DNA of 32,000 nucleotides from Desulfobulbus propionicus DSM 2032. GTDB taxonomy: Bacteria; Desulfobacterota; Desulfobulbia; Desulfobulbales; Desulfobulbaceae. Below the pieces are notes generated by a model. The model saw nothing but the letters and a program-made list of their open reading frames with translations, did no database searches and was not told the DNA's origin. The stretch covers positions 3,480,001 to 3,512,000 of the forward strand of contig NC_014972.1 of NCBI RefSeq assembly GCF_000186885.1, given 5' to 3'. Position 1 is the first letter of the stretch, and every line of letters begins with the position of its first letter. This document shows, in pieces, positions 21,782 through 32,000 of the stretch. The translations under genes and the position numbers were made by a program.

Positions 21782-22892
21782 TCAGGGCTGCCACAGGAGG
21801 TAGGCCTTGATAAAGGGATCGAGCCGCCCATCGAGGACCGCGTCCACGTTGCCCTCCTCGGTGTTGGTGCGGTGATCCTTGATCAGCCGGTAGGGCTGCA
21901 ACACATAGGAGCGGATCTGGCTGCCCCAGGCGATCTCCTTTTTGTCGCCCTGGATATTTTCCTGGGTGCGTTGCTGCTCCTCCTTTTCCCGCTCGTAGAG
22001 CCTTGCCATGAGCATCTTCATGGCCGTGGCCTTGTTGCTGTGCTGGCTGCGCTCGTTCTGGCACTGGACCACGATGCCGGTGGGAAAATGGGTGATGCGG
22101 ATGGCCGAATCGGTCTTGTTGACGTGCTGACCACCCGAACCGCTGGCCCGGTAGGTGTCGATGCGGATGTCCTTGTCGTTGATCTCGATCTCGACATCGT
22201 CATCCAATTCGGGCATGACCATCACCGAGGCGAACGAGGTGTGCCGCCGGCCGCTGGCATCGAAGGGCGAAATGCGGACCAGCCGATGAATGCCGACCTC
22301 GGAGCGGAGATAGCCGTAGGCGTATTTGCCCTTGACCATGATGGTGACGCTCTTGGTGCCGGCCTCGTCGCCGGGCAGCAGATCGAGGATGTCGGCCTTG
22401 AACCCCTTGGACTCCGCCCAGCGCAGGTACATGCGCAGGAGGATACCGACCCAGTCCTGGGCCTCGGTGCCGCCGGCCCCGGCATGGATGGTGAGGATGG
22501 CGTTGTTGGCGTCGTGCTCGCCGGAAAACATGCACTCCAGCTCCACCAGCTCGACGCGGCGGCGAAGGTCGTCCAGACCGGAAACCACCTCCTGGTAGGT
22601 GTCCTGGTCGTTCTCTTCCCGGGCCATGTCGAGCAGCATTTCGGCGTCCTCGAGATCGCCGAAATTCTTCTCCCACACCCCGATCAGATCCTGCAGCTGT
22701 CCCAACTGGCGCTGCACCCGCTTGGCCTCGCTCTGGTTGTCCCAGAAGTTGGGGCTGACCGTCTGCCGCTCCAGCAGTTCGACTTGTTCACGCTTGCCGT
22801 CTAAGTCAAAGATGCTCCTTGAGCACGAGCATTTTGCCCTTGAGGCTGTCGAGCAACTGTTTGGATTCCGCTGATTCGGTGATATCGGCCAT
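21782..22892 (-). CDS. prfB: Peptide chain release factor 2, requiring a programmed +1 frameshift
   Basis: Frame 0 runs from the ATG at 22892 and encodes 'MADITESAESKQLLDSLKGKMLVLKEHL', ending at an in-frame TGA (22808..22806). The +1 frame continues 'DLDGKREQVELLERQ...' into the 311-aa track ORF, which carries 'SPF' and 'GGQ' ('SGSGGQHVN'). Total length is about 369 aa. Confidence 0.95.
22805..22823 (-). promoter_or_regulatory. RF2 autoregulatory +1 frameshift site
   Basis: Minus strand 'CTCAAGGAGCAT CTT TGA C'. This is an SD-like AGGAG 3 nt upstream of the slippery CUU-UGA-C, as in the classical prfB site. Confidence 0.9.
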
Positions 22893-24716: not shown

Positions 24717-25593
24717 CGTTGCGGACAATGCGCACACTTTTGATGCGACGGGGATCGGCACCGAGCACCTTGAAGGAAAGGCCGTTCTCCTCGACCACCA
24801 CACCCGGCGGCGGCACCTTGCCCAAACGATGGATGATGAACCCGCCCACCGATTCATAGGGGCCCTCAGGCAGGTTGAGACGAAAATGGGCCTCCACCTC
24901 CTCGATATCGATCTTGGCGTCGACAATCACCGTGCGCTCGTCCACCACCCGCAGCTCGGAGTCTTCGTCGTCATGCTCGTCATCGATCTCGCCGACGATC
25001 TCCTCGATCACATCCTCCAGGGTAACCAGCCCGCGCACGCCGCCGAACTCATCGACCACGATCGCCATGTGAATCTTTTTCGATTGAAACTCGCGCAGCA
25101 GTTCGGTGATTGGTTTGGATTCCGGGATAAAGGTGGCCGGGTTGAGCACCTCCTTGAGGTCGAACTCGGCGTCATTGCCACGGGCGCAGAGGGACAGCAG
25201 GTCCTTGGCGTGAAGGATGCCGACTATCTGGTCCGGATTGTCCTTGTAAATGGGGATGCGGGTGTATCCCTGCTCGTTGATCAACCGGATCAGCTCCGGC
25301 ATCGAGGAAGTGAGATCGGCGCAAACCATCTCCGCCGAAGGGGTCATGATCTCGGAAGCGATGGTTTCCCGGAAATCGAAGATGGAATTGATCAGCCGTT
25401 CCTCGTGCACGGAAATCAACCCCTGCTCCTCGCCCTCCTCCAGCAACTCCTGGATCTCATGCTCCAATTCTTCGGTGGTGTCGGGGGCGGCGCGAAAACC
25501 GAGGACGGATTTTAATTTTTCAAAAAACGACTTACCAGGGGGCTCTTCATCCGAAGGCGCCGGACTCGCCGGCGACGGCTCCACAGTTTCCAT
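24694..25593 (-). CDS. corC: CBS-pair / CorC_HlyC transporter-associated domain protein (CorC/YbeX-like Mg/Co efflux-associated)
   Basis: 299 aa. 'ASEIMTPSAEMV' and 'RIPIYKDNPDQIVGILHAKDLL' (CBS pair). 'AIVVDEFGGVRGLVTLEDVIEEIVGEIDDEHD' and the C-terminal 'EGPYESVGGFIIHRLGKVP' (CorC_HlyC). Sits upstream of lnt, as in ybeX-lnt operons. Confidence 0.85.
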   Translation of the reverse strand: METVEPSPASPAPSDEEPPGKSFFEKLKSVLGFRAAPDTTEELEHEIQELLEEGEEQGLISVHEERLINSIFDFRETIASEIMTPSAEMVCADLTSSMPELIRLINEQGYTRIPIYKDNPDQIVGILHAKDLLSLCARGNDAEFDLKEVLNPATFIPESKPITELLREFQSKKIHMAIVVDEFGGVRGLVTLEDVIEEIVGEIDDEHDDEDSELRVVDERTVIVDAKIDIEEVEAHFRLNLPEGPYESVGGFIIHRLGKVPPPGVVVEENGLSFKVLGADPRRIKSVRIVRNDEIPPQP

Positions 25594-25842
25594 ACAAAAA
25601 TAGATTCTCCTTCAACGTGAAAAAACAGGTGGTATGAAAGTAGGCCAACAACGGCTAAAGTCAAGGGATATTTCCGCGACTTTTCACCGCATCCCGGGTT
25701 CCTTGCCTCTTTGCGTCCTGCGGATCGATTCCGGATATGGTTTTTTCCCTGAGCTTCCTCTTGACGGAGAGGTACGGGTATGCTAAAAGGTGCGCCTGCA
25801 ATGCGGGTGACCAGCTTGCCCGCACCATGAACATACACTCAT

Positions 25843-25918
<76 letters not shown>

Positions 25919-25925
25919 TCATATC

Positions 25926-25959
25926 AAGCACTTAGCGAACAGTCGCTAGGTGCTTTTTT
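25926..25959 (+). terminator. Rho-independent terminator after tRNA-Lys
   Basis: AAGCACTTAGCGA-ACAG-TCGCTAGGTGCTT (13 bp, one G-U), running into a T6 tract. Confidence 0.8.
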
Positions 25960-26136
25960 ATTTAGCCCCCATCGGTCTCACCCATGACAGGATGTCGCGG
26001 AACAACGCCCTTGCCACGATGGGCCAATGTTTCTGCTTGAATTCTGCGCAAAAAATACGCATAACAATCCGAGATGCGTAGGCAACCCAAAGTTCCCCAA
26101 AATCAAAAAGTCCGTTCTTGTAACGAGGTGAGCGAC

Positions 26137-26625
26137 ATGACGAAAAAAAGAGTGCTTCTGGTGGCTGTGTTCTGTTCTTTTCTTTTCTTGCCGCACTACA
26201 CTGCCCAGGCGGCTGCCTCCTTCGCCAAACCCAATTTGGCCGGAACCTGGTTTTTATACATAACCATCAACCAGATGAACAAGGAAACAGGATCGGATCC
26301 GACCTCGTATTTTGTACAGAAATCCGCCTGTGTATGGGGCACGGTCTCCGTCAATAAAAGCGGAGTGGTCAACTCGGGAACCACTCTAACTTATTACGAT
26401 TACGAAGGTGGTTCCTCCTTGTTCACCGTGACGGGTGGTGCGCTGATCATCGCCAAGAACGGCGTGGTTACCGGCGGGATCAATGTCATTGATTCGAGCC
26501 ATCAGACCGACACGATCACCATCGCGAACAGCAAGATGGAACCCGGCAAGAAGATGATCGCTGGAATCGTCAAGGACGCCGGGCACACCAAAAGCTACGG
26601 CATGTTCTCCGCAGTAAAACGATAG
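26137..26625 (+). CDS. Orphan secreted beta-rich protein (hypothetical)
   Basis: Start at the ATG at 26137 with GAGGTG 6 nt upstream. Signal peptide 'MTKKRVLLVAVFCSFLFLPHYTAQA'. Mature part is rich in G/T/S/V with short beta-strand-like runs ('LAGTWFLYITI', 'SLFTVTGGALIIAKNGVVTGGINVI'). Markedly lower GC than its surroundings. I recognise no family. Confidence 0.55.
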   Translation: MTKKRVLLVAVFCSFLFLPHYTAQAAASFAKPNLAGTWFLYITINQMNKETGSDPTSYFVQKSACVWGTVSVNKSGVVNSGTTLTYYDYEGGSSLFTVTGGALIIAKNGVVTGGINVIDSSHQTDTITIANSKMEPGKKMIAGIVKDAGHTKSYGMFSAVKR

Positions 26626-26676
26626 GGCCGTCGCCGTCTCTTGAAGATGTGTTGTTGAAACGGCTTTCCACACCAC

Positions 26677-26714
26677 AAAGCCGGTCACCTGAAGGTGACC
26701 GGCTTTTTTGTTTT
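26677..26714. terminator. Strong hairpin terminator shared by the convergent genes 26137-26625 (+) and 26734-27849 (-)
   Basis: AAAGCCGGTCACC-TGAA-GGTGACCGGCTTT followed by TTTGTTTT on the plus strand. An A-rich 5' flank gives a weaker U-tract on the minus strand. Lies 20 nt from the GT stop codon. Confidence 0.85.
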
Positions 26715-26733
26715 ATCCGCCATGGCGCTCCGC

Positions 26734-27849
26734 TCAGCTCCCATCCCTGCCCGCGACCACACCATGACGAGCATAGGTGTCAACCAGTTTTCTCACCATG
26801 CCCCGAAGACCGTAGCGATCGGCAATGATCCGATGTTGGCGTTCCATCCGTTGCGGTTCTCGTCGCGGCAGCTGGGCCAGTTCGTTCAATCCCTGGCAGG
26901 CAGCAGGGACGTCATCGTACGCAACCAGACGATAATCCTCGACCAAGTTGAGTGGCTCCTCGGTGGAAGAAATACGACAGGCGAGCACGGGCAGGCCGTT
27001 GAGCAGGCTCTGGATCAAGGCCTGGGACACGCCCTCTGCCTCGTAGGAGGAAAAAAAACAAAGGTCAAAGGCGCTGAGAAAACACTCGGGCTGCTCCTGA
27101 TGGCCGACAAAGAGCACCCGTTCGGTAACGCCCAATTCCTTGGCCAGGGCCTGAAGCCGGTCCAATTGGTCACCGTCGCCGACCAACATGAACCGGTAGT
27201 GGTCGGGCATGGCTGCCGCTGTCTTGATGATGAACGCATGCCCTTTGTAGGTACGCAGAAAACCGACATTGCCCACCAGAATATGGTGATCGCCAATGCC
27301 ATAGGCCTGACGAATAGCGTGCCGGTGCTGGGGTGAAAAACGAAACCGGGTCTCATCGTTGCCGGTTGACAGGACCACGGTCTTGCCCGCCGCGACGCCC
27401 TGCCTGGTCAACTGGGCGGCAATGGCCTCGCTGCAGGTGAAAATCACATGGGGAAAAAGAGTATAGCTTACGGCCGAGGAGATCGGCGCCAGGACGTGGC
27501 GGGTCCGGATGATCAGCGGCACCCGGCAAAAACGGGCAACAGCCCCGGCCATCCAGGAATCTTCGGAGGAATGCGTGTTGATCACCCTGGGCTTGAGCAT
27601 GCTGACGATCTGATACAGTTCCCGCCAGGCATTGGGATTGAATTTGGCGAAGGTCGAAACGCCGTATACAGGAATGTCCTCGGCGGCGGCCCGCCGCGCC
27701 AGCTCGGCATCGCGGGGAACAATCAGGCCGACGCGGAAACCGAGCCGGCGCATCTCGCGCAGTTCAGTCAGGACCCGGATCTCCTGCCCCCCCCAAACCC
27801 GGCTGCTGTCGGTATGAACCACCAATGGACTCTGTGTATTCGGTTGCAT
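26734..27849 (-). CDS. Glycosyltransferase family 4 (GT-B, GT1 clan)
   Basis: 'LVVHTDSSRVWGGQEIRVLTELREM' is the N-terminal GT4 strand plus Gly-rich loop. The C-terminal 'FFSSYEAEGVSQALIQSLLNGLPVLA' is an E-x7-E-type motif. Start set at the ATG at 27849; the GTG at 27855 is an alternative with better SD spacing. The 87-codon upstream extension in the track is not GT-like. Confidence 0.8.
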   Translation of the reverse strand: MQPNTQSPLVVHTDSSRVWGGQEIRVLTELREMRRLGFRVGLIVPRDAELARRAAAEDIPVYGVSTFAKFNPNAWRELYQIVSMLKPRVINTHSSEDSWMAGAVARFCRVPLIIRTRHVLAPISSAVSYTLFPHVIFTCSEAIAAQLTRQGVAAGKTVVLSTGNDETRFRFSPQHRHAIRQAYGIGDHHILVGNVGFLRTYKGHAFIIKTAAAMPDHYRFMLVGDGDQLDRLQALAKELGVTERVLFVGHQEQPECFLSAFDLCFFSSYEAEGVSQALIQSLLNGLPVLACRISSTEEPLNLVEDYRLVAYDDVPAACQGLNELAQLPRREPQRMERQHRIIADRYGLRGMVRKLVDTYARHGVVAGRDGS

Positions 27850-27935
27850 GCGCACGTGGTGGCCCCTCTGCCTGTCAAGAATAAACCGGCCGTTGGTGAA
27901 CGCCGCCACCCTCCTGCCACAAAGGTCGGGACCGG

Positions 27936-27966
27936 AAAAAATAGGGCAGCGAGCACGCTCCCGCCC
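27936..27966 (-). terminator. Orphan terminator-like hairpin about 90 nt upstream of the GT start
   Basis: Minus strand GGGCGGGAG-CGTG-CTCGCTGCCC (interrupted GC-rich stem), then TATTTTTT. No annotated minus-strand gene lies upstream of it. Confidence 0.4.
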
Positions 27967-28388
27967 CTTGATGCAAATATGGTTGGACAATGCCTCCGCA
28001 CCGACCGCCGTCGGCAAGGCTCCCACCGGTTGCGCGGAAACGCCCGGCAGCGCGATGACGGCGGATAATGGCTCCGCGTCTACCCTATCCACTTTCTTGC
28101 GATCCAACAAGCGTTCTCTCAGCCACTCTCCACGTCCTCTCCCAGGTGGGGTGTTGCCCTCTACGCAAAAACGTCGCCCGCTGCGGCCTTACACGCCATC
28201 TCATTGTTGGCAAAAAAGAGAAACGAACGAACGGCATTTTGAATGCCCGGCAAAAAAATGCAATTAACATTTTGAAAACGCGTGCCGATACCATACCATA
28301 CGGAAGGAATGCGGAGTTCTTTCCGAAAACAAACGGACGACGGATCCCATCGGAGGGGACGTCACAATCAATTCATAGGAGGAAATAC

Positions 28389-28934
28389 ATGAAAAAAACG
28401 TGGAAACGCAGTGCACTTCTCATGGGGACGGCAATGCTTGGGGCGATCGCCCTGTCTGGGACGAATGTGCAGGCAGGTGACGTGACCATGGACATCAATG
28501 TGGAAGTCAACTCAACGCTCACCGAAACTGCGACCAATATGGACTTTGGGACCATCGACCTCAACCCGGCCGGCGATACCGTCACCATCGATGCCACCGC
28601 GGGTTCGGCAACCCCGGCAACCACGGGAACATCGGTCATCACCGGCGGCACCAGCGGCACGATCACCGTGGCTTCGCCCAATGCCTTTACCATCACCGTC
28701 ACCTATCCTGCAACGGCAACCCTCAACGGTTCGGGCACTGCCGCGGGCGAGACCCTGACTGTCAGTGATATCGCCGCGAACTCCGAGGGCGGTAGCGGCA
28801 CTGTTGCAAAATCGTCAGGCCCCTCCCCAGGCTCGGATGCGGTCATTCACGTTGGCGGGGCAATAGTGTTCCCAGCGGACACGGTCAACGGCCCGTACAG
28901 CGGGACCATGACCATCACGCTCAACTATTCATAA
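28389..28934 (+). CDS. DUF4402-like secreted fimbrial subunit 1 (putative major subunit)
   Basis: ATG at 28389 with AGGAGG 7 nt upstream. Signal peptide 'MKKTWKRSALLMGTAMLGAIALSGTNVQA'. 'NMDFGTIDLNPAGDTVTIDA', 'FTITVTYPATATL', 'IHVGGAIVFPADTVNGPYSGTMTITLNYS' reproduce the layout I associate with DUF4402: L/M-x-F-G-x-I, then ...ItLP..., then ...vGGtL......G.Y.G...v.v.Y at the C-terminus. Confidence 0.65.
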   Translation: MKKTWKRSALLMGTAMLGAIALSGTNVQAGDVTMDINVEVNSTLTETATNMDFGTIDLNPAGDTVTIDATAGSATPATTGTSVITGGTSGTITVASPNAFTITVTYPATATLNGSGTAAGETLTVSDIAANSEGGSGTVAKSSGPSPGSDAVIHVGGAIVFPADTVNGPYSGTMTITLNYS

Positions 28935-29434
28935 TGCCCCTTGTGTTTCGGCAAAAAACGGCCAGGGCCCGCTCTTGGCGCGCCCTGGTCACCATGTTGA
29001 TGGGACCGCCTCTCCTTGCCGCTCCGCCCTTGATGGCCGGAGAGGTGGCCCACTTCACAAGCCTTGATTTCGGGACCATAGATCTCAACCCCGGTGGCGA
29101 CACCATCGTTATTGCCGCGCAGCATGGCCCCGCTTCGCCCACGGGCAGCCGTTCGGTGGTGGTGGGCGGCAGCAGCGGCCTGATGCAACTGACCTCCACC
29201 GAAGCGGAACATGTTGAAATCGTCTATCCGGAATCTGTCCTGTTGAGCTGTGGCGGCCGTTCGCTCAACATCACCAATATCGGCCCCAATTCACAGTATT
29301 CTCTTTCAGGAGTCGAGCTGCCCGGAGGGGGGGTGACCCGTTCGGTCAGTATCGGTGGGAGTCTTGCACTGCAGGGTAATGAAACCTCGGGCAGCTGCAG
29401 CGGCTCCATGTCCATCCAACTCAATTTCTTCTAA
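28934..29434 (+). CDS. DUF4402-like secreted fimbrial subunit 2 (paralog, putative minor/tip subunit)
   Basis: TAATG stop/start overlap with subunit 1. Signal-like 'RSWRALVTMLMGPPLLAAPPLMA'. 'SLDFGTIDLNPGGDTIVIAA', 'VSIGGSLALQGNETSGSCSGSMSIQLNFF' parallel subunit 1. No obvious SD. Confidence 0.55.
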   Translation: MPLVFRQKTARARSWRALVTMLMGPPLLAAPPLMAGEVAHFTSLDFGTIDLNPGGDTIVIAAQHGPASPTGSRSVVVGGSSGLMQLTSTEAEHVEIVYPESVLLSCGGRSLNITNIGPNSQYSLSGVELPGGGVTRSVSIGGSLALQGNETSGSCSGSMSIQLNFF

Positions 29435-29447
29435 AGCGGATTGTCCC

Positions 29448-30347
29448 ATGCCCAACATAGTCGCCCCTGTCGGAAAACAGAAATGGTTGCCTCTGGTTGT
29501 ATCGTTGATTGTCATCGGCCTTGTGCTGGTCGGTGCACGTTCCGCCCTGGCCGCGGCGAAAACGCTGATGCTCAATCCCGTTCGGGTCATCTTCACCGAT
29601 CGCCAGCGTACGGTGGAAGTCCATGTGATGAATCCAACCGAGGAAAGTATCACCTATGCCATTTCAACGGTGACCATGCGCAAGGATGGAAAAGGACAAT
29701 TGCAGGAAGTCACCGCCGAGAGCGAAAAAGAGCGTTCAATCAGGAGTATGGTTCGGTTTTCGCCCCGCCGGGCAACCATTGAACCCGGCAAGCGGCAGGT
29801 CGTCAAATTGATGGTCAACAAACCGGGGGATCTTGCCCCGGGTGAATATCAAACCCGTTTGCGGTTCAGCCCCCAGCCCACGGCAGCGCCAACCACGAAT
29901 TCCGGTGCTCCGGCCGCGCGCAAAGGCTCGCAATTTAACGTCGAAATTCTGGTTGACTCGACCATTCCCATCATTATCCAGCACGGGGGGATTGCCGCCG
30001 AGGTTGCCCCGCTTGCCTTGGCGATCAAGCAATCGGCGGACAGTCCCGCCGGAGTGGCCGCAGAGGTCAAGTTGTCGCGCAGCGGCAATGCCTCGGCGTT
30101 TGGCAATGTGTTCCTTCACTACGTGCCGGCCAATGATCCGAAAACCAGTCGTACAATTGGCCAAGCGCAAGGGGTTGCCATCTATCTTCCCGAGGTCGAG
30201 AAAAAAATGCTCATTCCCTTGACGGACATATCTCGCCAGGAGCTTTCCTCCGGGTCCATTCGCGTCTCGTTCCTGCCGGGAACGGGTTCCGCCAACCAGC
30301 GTGAGAATCTGGGACAAAAGGCGGTCAAGGACTTCCCGCTGCGCTGA
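29448..30347 (+). CDS. Periplasmic pilus-assembly chaperone (PapD-like, two Ig-like domains)
   Basis: Start at the ATG at 29448. TM/signal 'KWLPLVVSLIVIGLVLVGARSALA'. 'LMLNPVRVIFTDRQRTVEVHVMNPTEESITYAIS', 'VRFSPRRATIEPGKRQVVKLMV' and 'LAPGEYQTRLRF' match the PapD_N pattern: L-x-x-P-x-R-v, single-residue-spaced strands, P-p-x-x-l-x-P-G-x-x-q-x-v-r. Confidence 0.65.
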   Translation: MPNIVAPVGKQKWLPLVVSLIVIGLVLVGARSALAAAKTLMLNPVRVIFTDRQRTVEVHVMNPTEESITYAISTVTMRKDGKGQLQEVTAESEKERSIRSMVRFSPRRATIEPGKRQVVKLMVNKPGDLAPGEYQTRLRFSPQPTAAPTTNSGAPAARKGSQFNVEILVDSTIPIIIQHGGIAAEVAPLALAIKQSADSPAGVAAEVKLSRSGNASAFGNVFLHYVPANDPKTSRTIGQAQGVAIYLPEVEKKMLIPLTDISRQELSSGSIRVSFLPGTGSANQRENLGQKAVKDFPLR

Positions 30348-30372
30348 CGCTCTCCCTTCCCGCCAACGCGCA

Positions 30373-30414
30373 ACCCGGACCAGGCTGGCCATCGCCGCCT
30401 CTTCCGGGTTTTTT
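30373..30414 (+). terminator. Terminator after the subunit-chaperone operon
   Basis: ACCCGGA...AGGC...GCCT...TCCGGGT interrupted stem, followed by a T6 tract. Confidence 0.6.
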
Positions 30415-30494
30415 CTTGCACGGTTTGTTTTCTTTTTACGGTCCCCGCCGCACCGGGGAAAACGGCAAGGAGCTGGTGAGCCGGCAACGGATAC

Positions 30495-32000
30495 TCAAAT
30501 TTTATTTCGCTGCATATTTGCGTATTTTTGCGCGATCAATTTAGGGTTATACCCTGTCGGCATCCGGTTCGCGGGGAGGGTGGCGATGGGTTGCTGCTCC
30601 CTGGTGGAGTAGTTGACAGGGAGACTGAGCGCGGAACCGGTTCTGGGCCGCATGCGCGCGGCCAACCGGTCAGCCTCGTTCTTGACGCTGAAATCGCCGC
30701 AGGTGACTCGGTAATAGATCCCCTTTTCCTCACCCAGATCGACTTTTGTCACCCGTAGATCCTCGGCGCCGACAATGTCCGCCAGTTTTTGCGCAAGAAT
30801 CTGCATGCCTCTGCGCGCCGCCTCCATGGATTTATACGAGGCAAGATGGACGGCATAGGTGCCGGTGGTCCCGTTTTTTGTCGGCACAGCAGGTGGCTGT
30901 TCCGCTTTGCTGGCCGGTTGTGGGACGGGCGAGGGTATGGCGGCGCGCGTTTCGGTTTCGCGGCGCGCGACCCCGGCTTTGCCATTCGGGGCAGCATTGC
31001 CGGTACCTGTTTGGGCGGCGAAGGTGCTTGCCGCCAAGGTCAAGGGGGCAATGGAAAGAGTGGTTGTTTGTTTGGCGGAAGGCGGTGCGGATGGTTTGAC
31101 AGCGGCAAGGGCTTCATGCCCCATCCCTTGCCGGGTGTCGGAAGAACCGGGCGCGGAGGGGGCCGGTCTGTCGGCAGGCGCCTTGTCGCGATTCCTGTAT
31201 TCAGGTGGGGCAAGAATGATATCGTTGCCGCGGGCGATGGTGCCGTCGTTGTCGATGACAATCTGTTTTTGCCATTCGTCGACCGATTCCTTGAGGCGGG
31301 GATCGGTGCTGGAGGCCTGCAGTGTGTAGGTGCCAGGGAAGACTTTTTCAAACAGGTAGAATCCGTCGTATTCGGAAACGGTTTTTTGGACCTGCTTCCC
31401 CTGCTTGTCGAGCAGTTCCAACTGCACGTTGGCCAGGGGTTCCTTGACGCCCTCCCTGTTGGCAACGTACACCATGCCGTCGATTTCTCCGGTGGAAACA
31501 ACAGGAAAGTCGATGGAATGGACACTGCCCGAACGAGGCAGGACCGCCACGCCGGGAACAGCGGGTTGCCAGTGGGGATCTTTCAACGAATCCGGATCAA
31601 TTTCCACATCGGTTGGCTCGGAGGCGGCGAGCCCGGTGAATTGTGCAACGCCCTGATCATTGGTCCGGACATTTCTCCTGAGTTGCCTGGCCACCACCCT
31701 GACCTCGGGCAGGGGCGTGTCATCTTGATCAAAGACCTTGTTGTTGTTGGCGTCGTGATAAACAAACGCCGTCGTCGCGCCGCGGCCGGATCGTTTTTCC
31801 GATTTCACCACGATTTCCTCGCTCACCGGATCCTTCCCCAGGGAAAAGGAAAGGCCGAGAAAGGCACCAAAATTTCCTTCGGAATCGTACAGGAGACTGG
31901 GAGAAAGAATATATTGGCCAGTGTCGAAGTCAAGGCTGGCCCTGGCCGTGGTCAAGTCTTCCTGCAAATCGTCATCCACCTCGCGAATGACACTGGCGCC
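30495..32000 (-). CDS. Large envelope protein, C-terminal about 500 aa only (5' end outside the window): barrel-end strands, two beta-sandwich (usher-CTD/CarboxypepD_reg-like) domains, Pro/Ala-rich linker, SPOR domain
   Basis: The frame is open to the window edge. 'ASLDFDTGQYILSPSLLYDSEGNFGAFLGLSFSLG' has amphipathic beta-strand character. 'RTNDQGVAQFTGLAASEPTDVEIDPDSL' resembles the usher plug/CTD motif. 'VQLELLDKQGKQVQKTVSEYDGFYLFEKVFPGTYTL' is CarboxypepD_reg-like. The C-terminal 'YAVHLASYKSMEAARRGMQILAQKLADIVGAEDLRVTKVDLGEEKGIYYRVTCGDFSVKNEADRLAARM' fits a SPOR fold pattern. Confidence 0.6.
   Translation of the reverse strand, partial: GASVIREVDDDLQEDLTTARASLDFDTGQYILSPSLLYDSEGNFGAFLGLSFSLGKDPVSEEIVVKSEKRSGRGATTAFVYHDANNNKVFDQDDTPLPEVRVVARQLRRNVRTNDQGVAQFTGLAASEPTDVEIDPDSLKDPHWQPAVPGVAVLPRSGSVHSIDFPVVSTGEIDGMVYVANREGVKEPLANVQLELLDKQGKQVQKTVSEYDGFYLFEKVFPGTYTLQASSTDPRLKESVDEWQKQIVIDNDGTIARGNDIILAPPEYRNRDKAPADRPAPSAPGSSDTRQGMGHEALAAVKPSAPPSAKQTTTLSIAPLTLAASTFAAQTGTGNAAPNGKAGVARRETETRAAIPSPVPQPASKAEQPPAVPTKNGTTGTYAVHLASYKSMEAARRGMQILAQKLADIVGAEDLRVTKVDLGEEKGIYYRVTCGDFSVKNEADRLAARMRPRTGSALSLPVNYSTREQQPIATLPANRMPTGYNPKLIAQKYANMQRNKI

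Follow-up and report, generated by a model that had tools for sequence, protein, structure and literature searches.

Background

Chaperone-usher (CU) pili are the textbook adhesins of Gram-negative pathogens, and both their classification and the surveys of their distribution rest on the detection of usher sequences. Among the archaic systems, the Csu pilus of Acinetobacter baumannii is encoded together with the chaperone CsuC and the usher CsuD and has the subunits CsuA/B, CsuA, CsuB and CsuE; CupE is its counterpart in Pseudomonas aeruginosa. The spore coat U system of Myxococcus xanthus (Mcu) is an archaic CU system from a non-enteric, formerly 'deltaproteobacterial' host. It has SCPU subunits and an usher that is detected by the Pfam family Usher (PF00577), and it demonstrates that a CU system can make something other than classical adhesive pili. 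Here we describe the genes Despr_3044-3047 of Desulfobulbus propionicus DSM 2032, identified by an exact sequence match. They lie at the end of an analysed stretch of 32,000 nucleotides (the window, to which all coordinates refer unless a locus is named), and probably encode a complete, functional and highly divergent polymer- or fibre-assembly system of the CU type. The host is a Gram-negative anaerobic sulfate reducer; that it is an anaerobe had been guessed in a preliminary description made from the sequence of the window alone.

Organization of the locus and conservation of the gene neighbourhood

Three genes on the plus strand, encoding two DUF4402 (PF14352) subunits and a PapD-like chaperone, face one convergent open reading frame (ORF) on the minus strand, which encodes a large usher-like protein (Table 1). 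The two subunit genes are joined by a TAATG overlap, and a 13-nt spacer separates the second of them from the ATG of the chaperone gene at 29448. Both features were read in the sequence and, like the gene coordinates, are present as the preliminary description had them.

A genome scan with the chaperone alignment produced 38 loci from Desulfobulbales, Desulfobacterales, Desulfovibrionaceae, many Gammaproteobacteria, Massilia, Acidiferrobacterales, Chromatiales and Gemmatimonadales. All six-frame ORFs of these loci and of those collected earlier, 48 in total, were then searched with one profile per family (subunit, chaperone and usher). The subunit gene or genes, the chaperone gene and the usher-like gene are adjacent in 47 of the 48 loci, which come from Desulfobacterota, Gamma- and Betaproteobacteria, and Gemmatimonadota. 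In Desulfobacterota the usher gene is mostly convergent and downstream, at times upstream. In Proteobacteria and Gemmatimonadota all four genes are co-directional, e.g. in Polaromonas (L007) and in locus L010. Thus the position of the usher gene outside the operon and convergent to it, which had been noted for the window, holds for D. propionicus, but as a general arrangement it is limited to Desulfobacterota. The ORFs are intact and conserved across many independent genomes and metagenomes. The family is large, as at least 4458 cluster representatives (50% identity) are found by the usher profile at E <=1e-30.

Table 1. Features of the D. propionicus locus and of related loci
Feature	Coordinates	Strand	Basis and remarks
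Candidate sigma-70-like promoter, TTGAAA-16-TACCAT	28272..28299	+	Consensus scan only, 9/12 matches; weak; upstream of the subunit-subunit-chaperone operon
Subunit 1, Despr_3044, 181 aa; signal peptide and N-terminal extension; proposed major polymerising pilin	28389..28934	+	Pfam DUF4402 E 1.3e-14
Extension of mature subunit 1, GDVTMDINVEVNSTL; candidate donor strand	28467..28511	+	Outside the Pfam DUF4402 domain
Subunit 2, Despr_3045, 166 aa; without extension; proposed tip or initiator	28934..29434	+	Pfam DUF4402 E 2.1e-11
Periplasmic PapD-like chaperone, Despr_3046, 299 aa	29448..30347	+	Signal peptide ~1-36; beta-sandwich domains ~40-142 and 171-297
Usher-like protein, Despr_3047, C-terminal 501 aa	30495..32000	-	Full length 1233 aa; N-terminal 732 aa beyond the window
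SPOR domain of Despr_3047, residues 1113-1194	30615..30860	-	Pfam SPOR E 2.7e-5
Pro/Ala/Ser-rich disordered linker, residues ~997-1112	30861..31208	-	pLDDT ~30 in the P0071 model; composition in the translation
Beta-sandwich like C-terminal domain 2 (CTD2), CarboxypepD_reg/prealbumin type, residues ~892-996	31209..31523	-	Pfam CarboxypepD_reg E 9e-13, SdrD_B, SpaA; model and mapping
Beta-sandwich like C-terminal domain 1 (CTD1), residues ~795-886	31539..31814	-	Model and mapping
Last three predicted barrel strands, residues 746-788	31833..31961	-	DSSP of the P0071 model mapped to the query
N-terminal extension of the usher-like protein, ~140 aa	L001:14330-14749	-	Outside the window; same gene as 30495-32000(-)
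Gene for the ~340-aa protein with two DUF4402 stretches	L033:4473-5501, L047:4462-5472		Equivalents are the first genes of L023, L026, L029, L031, L034, L035, L038

The PapD-like chaperone

The AlphaFold2 model of Despr_3046 was built with a 46-sequence alignment and has a predicted local distance difference test (pLDDT) score of 86.8. It consists of a signal helix and two beta-sandwich domains. In a Foldseek search against PDB, both domains of the model were aligned over ~260-280 columns with CU chaperones at E 4e-10 to 1e-7, among them CsuC, CfaA, Caf1M, FimC, PapD, DraB, SfaE, FaeE, YadV and CupB2. CU chaperones account for 45 of the 50 best matches, and the best of them is CsuC (E 3.8e-10). 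The modelled fold of the protein is that of PapD, which bears out the assignment first made from its sequence pattern.

PapD_N is weakly matched by 28 of 46 chaperone homologs. The chaperone is the only protein of the locus that was recognised by database pipelines, the label being 'P pilus assembly chaperone PapD' at the Joint Genome Institute (JGI) and 'Pili assembly chaperone N-terminal domain-containing protein' in UniRef. No NCBIfam model matches any of the four proteins.

In the family alignment of the chaperones, R46 in the A1-strand motif LNPVRVIF and R137 in strand G1 hardly vary, and R54, R103 and R108 do not vary at all; these are alignment columns and not cleft geometry. GEY134, with which the alternating G1 strand (Y-x-T-x-L-x-F) begins, is also invariant. 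In known systems Arg8 and Lys112 of PapD, or the two-domain anchor of archaic chaperones, hold the C-terminal carboxylate of the subunit in the cleft. Judged by sequence, the conserved residues of Despr_3046 would fit the role of a CU chaperone. Y134 is reminiscent of CsuC, in which a conserved tyrosine, Tyr116, opens a register-shifted donor motif (PMC4654587).

The usher-like protein

The full usher gene was recovered from identical metagenome contigs (L001:11048-14749, minus strand), and the structure was modelled for an ortholog, P0071 (1192 aa), in which 744 of 1102 residues (67%) are identical to the query. In the model pLDDT exceeds 90 across most of residues 10-870. An N-terminal domain (17-135) is followed by four long and two short strands, a sandwich insert (288-356) and eighteen strands up to residue 659. 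After these come two sandwich domains (666-757 and 763-867), a disordered linker of 200 residues and a SPOR fold. According to DSSP the barrel thus has 24 strands, and the plug separates strand 6 from strand 7. In FimD the barrel occupies residues 139-665, the plug 241-324, CTD1 666-750 and CTD2 751-834, and the domain boundaries in the model closely parallel these.

Among the Foldseek matches of the P0071 model in PDB, the best 18 are without exception FimD or PapC, at E 2e-29 to 8e-15. The alignment spans 750-926 columns for full-length ushers, and isolated translocation domains reach a target-normalised template modelling score (TM-score) of 0.52-0.57. Of the unrelated barrels, even the best (LptD, BtuB and Occ porins) have E 1e-6 or worse. 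By the model of its ortholog, the convergent protein has the fold of an usher, and its description as usher-like from the window alone withstood the structural comparison. The same description had the protein end in usher-like beta-sandwich domains. These domains are present; however, they are not the end of the protein, as the linker and SPOR come after them. The window does not reach the barrel proper and contains its last three strands, the two beta-sandwich domains, a linker of ~115 residues and SPOR.

At the level of sequence, one of ten other family members, P0144, passes the Pfam Usher model (29.3 vs 27.1 bits). With a match to the query at E 1e-88, it provides a thin bridge to Pfam Usher. 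The N-terminal domain of the usher-like protein gives a sub-threshold Pfam match to Cu_amine_oxidN1 ('stalk').

Both ends of the protein are unusual for an usher. At the C-terminus, SPOR (PF05036) scores 24.8 bits on the fragment contained in the window (cut-off 21), and the corresponding region of the P0071 model is folded as beta-alpha-beta-beta-alpha-beta with pLDDT >85. SPOR-like domains, from one to three per protein, were found in 76 of the 227 sampled members of the usher family. No usher that carries a peptidoglycan-binding module is known to us, and nothing relevant came from a literature search pairing 'SPOR domain' with 'usher'.

At the N-terminus, the homologs from Proteobacteria, Gemmatimonadota and Desulfovibrionaceae have ordinary hydrophobic sequences. 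In Despr_3047 the place of a signal peptide is taken by a helical extension of ~140 aa with a Pro-rich linker, which is conserved in sequence in all Desulfobulbales and Desulfobacterales homologs. The most hydrophobic 12-mer within residues 1-180 is the first strand of the N-terminal domain.

Two further observations concern this family. Three tandem SPOR-like domains end the proteins P0218, P0224, P0227, P0241 and others. In one metagenome contig (L004:4612-8293, minus strand) the usher gene is split into ORFs of 1114 aa and 103 aa, and the SPOR end is removed. The cause may be a frameshift or a nonsense variant, or else a fault of the assembly.

The DUF4402 subunits

The two subunits score 55.3 and 45.0 bits with DUF4402, the gathering score of which is 25.2 bits. 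They are thus members of this family, and not of SCPU or Fimbrial, as had been proposed from the letters alone. They are paralogues (31% identity, BLASTP E 7e-24). The two motifs that had been picked out as shared, 'DFGTIDLNP.GDT' and the C-terminal 'SG(T/S)M(T/S)I.LN(Y/F)', are both real in the paralogue alignment.

The difference between the paralogues is at the mature N-terminus. Subunit 1 has ~15 extra residues after the signal peptide, and its Pfam DUF4402 domain begins at residue 46. Subunit 2 has a gap of ~13 residues relative to it (16 if counted from the predicted cleavage site), and the mature protein runs almost straight into the conserved L-x-F-G strand. DUF4402 ORFs were profiled in all 48 loci. 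Among 89 distinct rows of the family, hydrophobic residues occupy positions 3, 5, 7, 9 and 11 of the extension in 65-97%, and positions 2, 4, 6, 8 and 10 in just 11-18%. In ~20 loci with two subunits, a 'long' paralogue followed by a 'short' one stands beside the chaperone gene. The same alternating pattern has been described for the donor strand of Csu pili, where it is required for polymerisation (PMC4654587). By this pattern, the extension of subunit 1 is a candidate donor strand. Subunit 2, having no extension, could accept a strand and could not donate one. This is the logic of a tip subunit, and subunit 2 may be the tip or the initiator of the fibre.

In many gammaproteobacterial loci the two single-domain subunits are preceded by an additional protein of ~340 aa with two DUF4402 stretches. 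By analogy with CsuE or FimH, it is a candidate two-domain tip adhesin.

Subunit 2 is annotated in RefSeq (WP_169701647.1) as a protein of 144 aa starting at a later Met; the form of 166 aa, which starts at the TAATG, has the likelier signal peptide, with a basic n-region. One metagenome-assembled genome of Desulfobulbus contains a third DUF4402 gene with an N-terminal extension, located after the chaperone gene (L015:7793-8467, plus strand).

Possible mechanism and points against it

These observations suggest the following scheme. Both DUF4402 subunits and the chaperone, all three of which have signal peptides, would be exported by Sec. In the periplasm the chaperone would cap each subunit by donor-strand complementation, using the G1 strand G-E-Y134-Q-T-R-L-R-F. 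The chaperone:subunit complexes would be recruited by the usher-fold protein, with its stalk-like N-terminal domain, 24-strand barrel and plug, and two C-terminal sandwiches. Subunit 2, without the N-terminal extension, would enter first and end at the distal tip. Subunit 1 would then polymerise, the extension of each molecule (V-x-M-x-I-x-V-x-V) entering the subunit before it in place of the chaperone, and the fibre would be extruded through the barrel. SPOR, on the linker of ~115 residues, may tether the machine to peptidoglycan, either for mechanical anchoring or for septal or polar placement.

However, a number of points weigh against this interpretation of the locus. Firstly, the sequence links to known CU components are weak. 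Searches of PDB sequences with the subunits and with the chaperone, using both single sequences and profiles, gave nothing significant; CupB2 and YadV surfaced at E 0.5-0.8 only. The PapD_N match of the chaperone (E 1.9e-4, 21.9 bits) is just under the Pfam cut-off of 23. The alignment of its profile with FimC by hhalign covers domain 2 only and, although positionally right, is not significant (E 0.007). The 1233-aa protein has no Pfam match to Usher, PapC_N or PapC_C at E <=10. The hhalign alignment of the usher family profile with FimD is limited to the CTD1 region (FimD 734-793); again it is positionally consistent and not significant (E 0.015).

Secondly, the structural evidence has its own limits. 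The best single Foldseek match of the chaperone is not a CU chaperone but the WxL-interacting protein (WxLIP) of Enterococcus faecium (PDB 9i1y / 9i25, E 3.5e-10), so that this fold also occurs outside the CU chaperones; there is also a weak Pfam match to WxLIP_PGBD (E 0.01). The usher model is that of an ortholog and not of the query, and its strands were counted from the DSSP list and not from coordinates. An incomplete immunoglobulin (Ig)-like fold of the subunits, which would lack the G strand and leave an open groove, is hypothetical; it is suggested indirectly by the extension with five alternating hydrophobic positions in one paralogue and its absence from the other.

Thirdly, no signal peptide is detectable in the usher of the D. 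propionicus lineage, which is hard to square with an outer-membrane barrel, and there is an in-frame stop five codons upstream of the TTG start. Finally, the statement of the D. propionicus genome paper that the organism 'produces fimbriae' (PMC3072085) speaks for the scheme, but these could be type IV pili.

Alternative explanations

One possibility is that the locus encodes a very diverged member of the archaic (sigma) class, like Csu, CupE and Mcu, and that DUF4402 is a far relative of SCPU; it would then not differ in kind from archaic pili. This would agree with CsuC being the closest CU chaperone in structure and with the parallel between Y134 and Tyr116. Several features of the subunits are also colinear in CsuA/B and DUF4402, namely an alternating N-terminal strand (VDVKLNIST and MDINVEVNST, respectively), the L-x-F-G motif ~20-30 residues further on, and the motif G-x-Y-x-x-[ST]-[LM]-x-[VI]-T-[VL]-N-[FY] at the very end of the protein. 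However, CsuA/B matches SCPU (PF05229) at E 3.8e-22 and has no match to DUF4402 at E <=10, and none of 25 DUF4402 proteins matches SCPU even at E <=10. The hhalign alignment of the DUF4402 profile with CsuA/B covers only 30 C-terminal residues and is not significant (E 0.057), which adds to the weak sequence links listed above. PF00577 detects sigma ushers such as CsuD and misses Despr_3047, and neither the stalk-like N-terminal domain nor the SPOR tail is a feature of Csu-type ushers. We consider this explanation unlikely.

Another possibility is that the DUF4402 proteins, exported by way of the chaperone and the usher-like pore, form no long fibres. The product could then be a coat on the cell surface, a layer resembling a capsule, or short oligomers, cf. 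Caf1 capsules and the Myxococcus spore coat U. Indeed, no DUF4402 fibre has been reported; the preliminary description had called such fibres uncharacterised, and no paper mentioning DUF4402 or PF14352 was found. The SPOR tail also suggests a structural role in the envelope. On the other hand, throughout the family one paralogue has the alternating extension and the other lacks it, a hallmark of subunits that polymerise head to tail in an ordered way and end in a defined tip. Moreover, Caf1 and spore coat U are donor-strand polymers as well, so this explanation differs from a fibre in morphology more than in mechanism. We consider it quite improbable.

A chance association of the DUF4402 genes with an unrelated SPOR-tethered porin or transporter, or a decayed remnant with an unexportable usher, might be suspected from the convergent usher gene outside the operon, the missing signal peptide and the absence of a Pfam Usher match, but is hardly credible given the adjacency of the genes across phyla and their single co-directional operon outside Desulfobacterota, the intact ORFs conserved in independent genomes and metagenomes, structural matches to FimD and PapC that surpass those to any other barrel by more than 20 orders of magnitude, and the conservation of the very extension that replaces the signal peptide.

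Place of the system and significance

A divergent CU-type assembly system thus is the preferred interpretation of Despr_3044-3047. We rate it as a deep, uncharacterised branch of the CU pathway that involves no new principle. A wider proposal can be made only tentatively, as quite possible but short of probable. According to it, the DUF4402 systems form an unclassified deep clade, separate from the six clades that are defined by ushers (alpha, beta, gamma, kappa, pi and sigma). They would have been overlooked since the Usher hidden Markov model (HMM) does not detect their ushers, and would be widespread in environmental Proteobacteria, Desulfobacterota and Gemmatimonadota. Innovations of particular lineages, not known from other ushers, would be a tether to peptidoglycan made of one to three SPOR domains and a conserved 140-aa N-terminal module that stands in for the signal peptide in Desulfobulbales and Desulfobacterales and implies an unknown export route. 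The system would make the fimbriae of D. propionicus described in 1982. A literature search linking CU systems with Desulfobulbus found no papers.

A family of thousands of clusters at 50% identity has the full list of CU parts, and yet its ushers, chaperones and subunits are nearly invisible to standard models. If the interpretation is correct, the CU pathway extends to sulfate reducers and to many uncultured environmental lineages, and DUF4402 gains a function. The family would also provide a very distant outgroup for the ancestral features of donor-strand assembly. It would raise the questions why an usher should be tethered by SPOR and how an outer-membrane barrel without a signal is exported. 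As D. propionicus DSM 2032 is cultivable and reportedly fimbriate, these questions are testable.

Expression signals, flanking genes and other features of the window

A strong Shine-Dalgarno box, AGGAGG, precedes the start of the first subunit gene at 28389. In an Rfam scan covering 25500-30600, neither a riboswitch nor a leader was found for the operon. A sub-threshold match to the cyclic di-GMP-I (c-di-GMP-I) riboswitch at 28603-28694 on the minus strand lies within coding sequence and on the wrong strand, and was dismissed as chance. A scan of the convergent intergenic region 30348-30494 found no convincing terminator.

The genes that flank the locus in the window are not conserved beyond close relatives, and thus are considered to be outside the system. 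Upstream, a secreted protein of 162 aa (26134-26625) and a GT4 glycosyltransferase (26734-28110) were rejected as parts of the system, having no counterpart in any of the more distant loci. The former, encoded on the plus strand, has a signal peptide and no Pfam or NCBIfam match, and is conserved in close relatives only. Beyond the usher gene, a cyclic nucleotide monophosphate (cNMP)-binding/PatA_N protein and a protein of 123 aa were rejected as well. They were found only in three Desulfobulbus genomes, and their identity there, 58-88% vs 48-55% for the pilus genes, indicates plain synteny. When L011, L015 and L016 are compared with L001, the same ranges are seen for the flanking genes and for the chaperone, respectively, and the pilus genes evolve markedly faster.

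A gene for tRNA-Lys (CTT) is located at 25843-25918 on the plus strand, ~2.5 kb upstream of the pilus locus, and the GC content falls from ~63% to 53-55% across 25-27 kb of the window. Nothing indicates that the pilus locus is an island, as it is syntenic in other Desulfobulbus genomes.

Finally, the window contains the release factor 2 gene prfB, called as two ORFs, an upstream one of 28 aa and one of 311 aa with PCRF and RF-1. The classic programmed +1 frameshift site CTTTGAC is at 22805-22811, preceded by the Shine-Dalgarno-like AGGAG at 22815-22819 (the region 22805-22819 being on the minus strand). Programmed +1 frameshifting in prfB is a known phenomenon.

Comparison with known systems

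In style the locus appears closest to the archaic Csu and CupE pili, although membership in the archaic class fails at the sequence level. Like these systems, it has small beta-rich subunits with an alternating N-terminal donor strand (a candidate here) and a C-terminal end of the form ...T-V/L-N-F/Y, a tip subunit without the donor strand (proposed here), a two-domain chaperone with a conserved Tyr at the start of G1, and an outer-membrane usher, and all genes are clustered. Unlike them, its subunits belong to DUF4402 and not to SCPU, with no cross-match either way. Its usher is invisible to PF00577, has an N-terminal domain like Cu_amine_oxidN1 ('stalk') and a C-terminal SPOR, and in this lineage has no signal peptide. 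The tip candidate has a single domain, and the usher gene is convergent.

With FimD of type 1 pili and PapC of P pili, the usher-like protein shares the order of the domains, that is, N-terminal domain, 24-strand barrel, plug after strand 6, CTD1 and CTD2. The A1 motif R-V-I-F of the chaperone resembles the Arg8 region of FimC and PapD, which is R-V-I-Y. However, the identity to FimD and PapC is only ~12%, the plug and the C-terminal domains score as CarboxypepD_reg/prealbumin-like, and there are additional modules at both ends, of ~140 aa at the N-terminus and the linker with SPOR at the C-terminus. The subunits are unrelated in sequence to those of type 1 and P pili (Fimbrial, PF00419). Nor do the DUF4402 proteins have any sequence-level relation to Mcu. 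Finally, WxLIP is a Gram-positive cell-surface protein without an usher partner, and resembles the chaperone in fold only.

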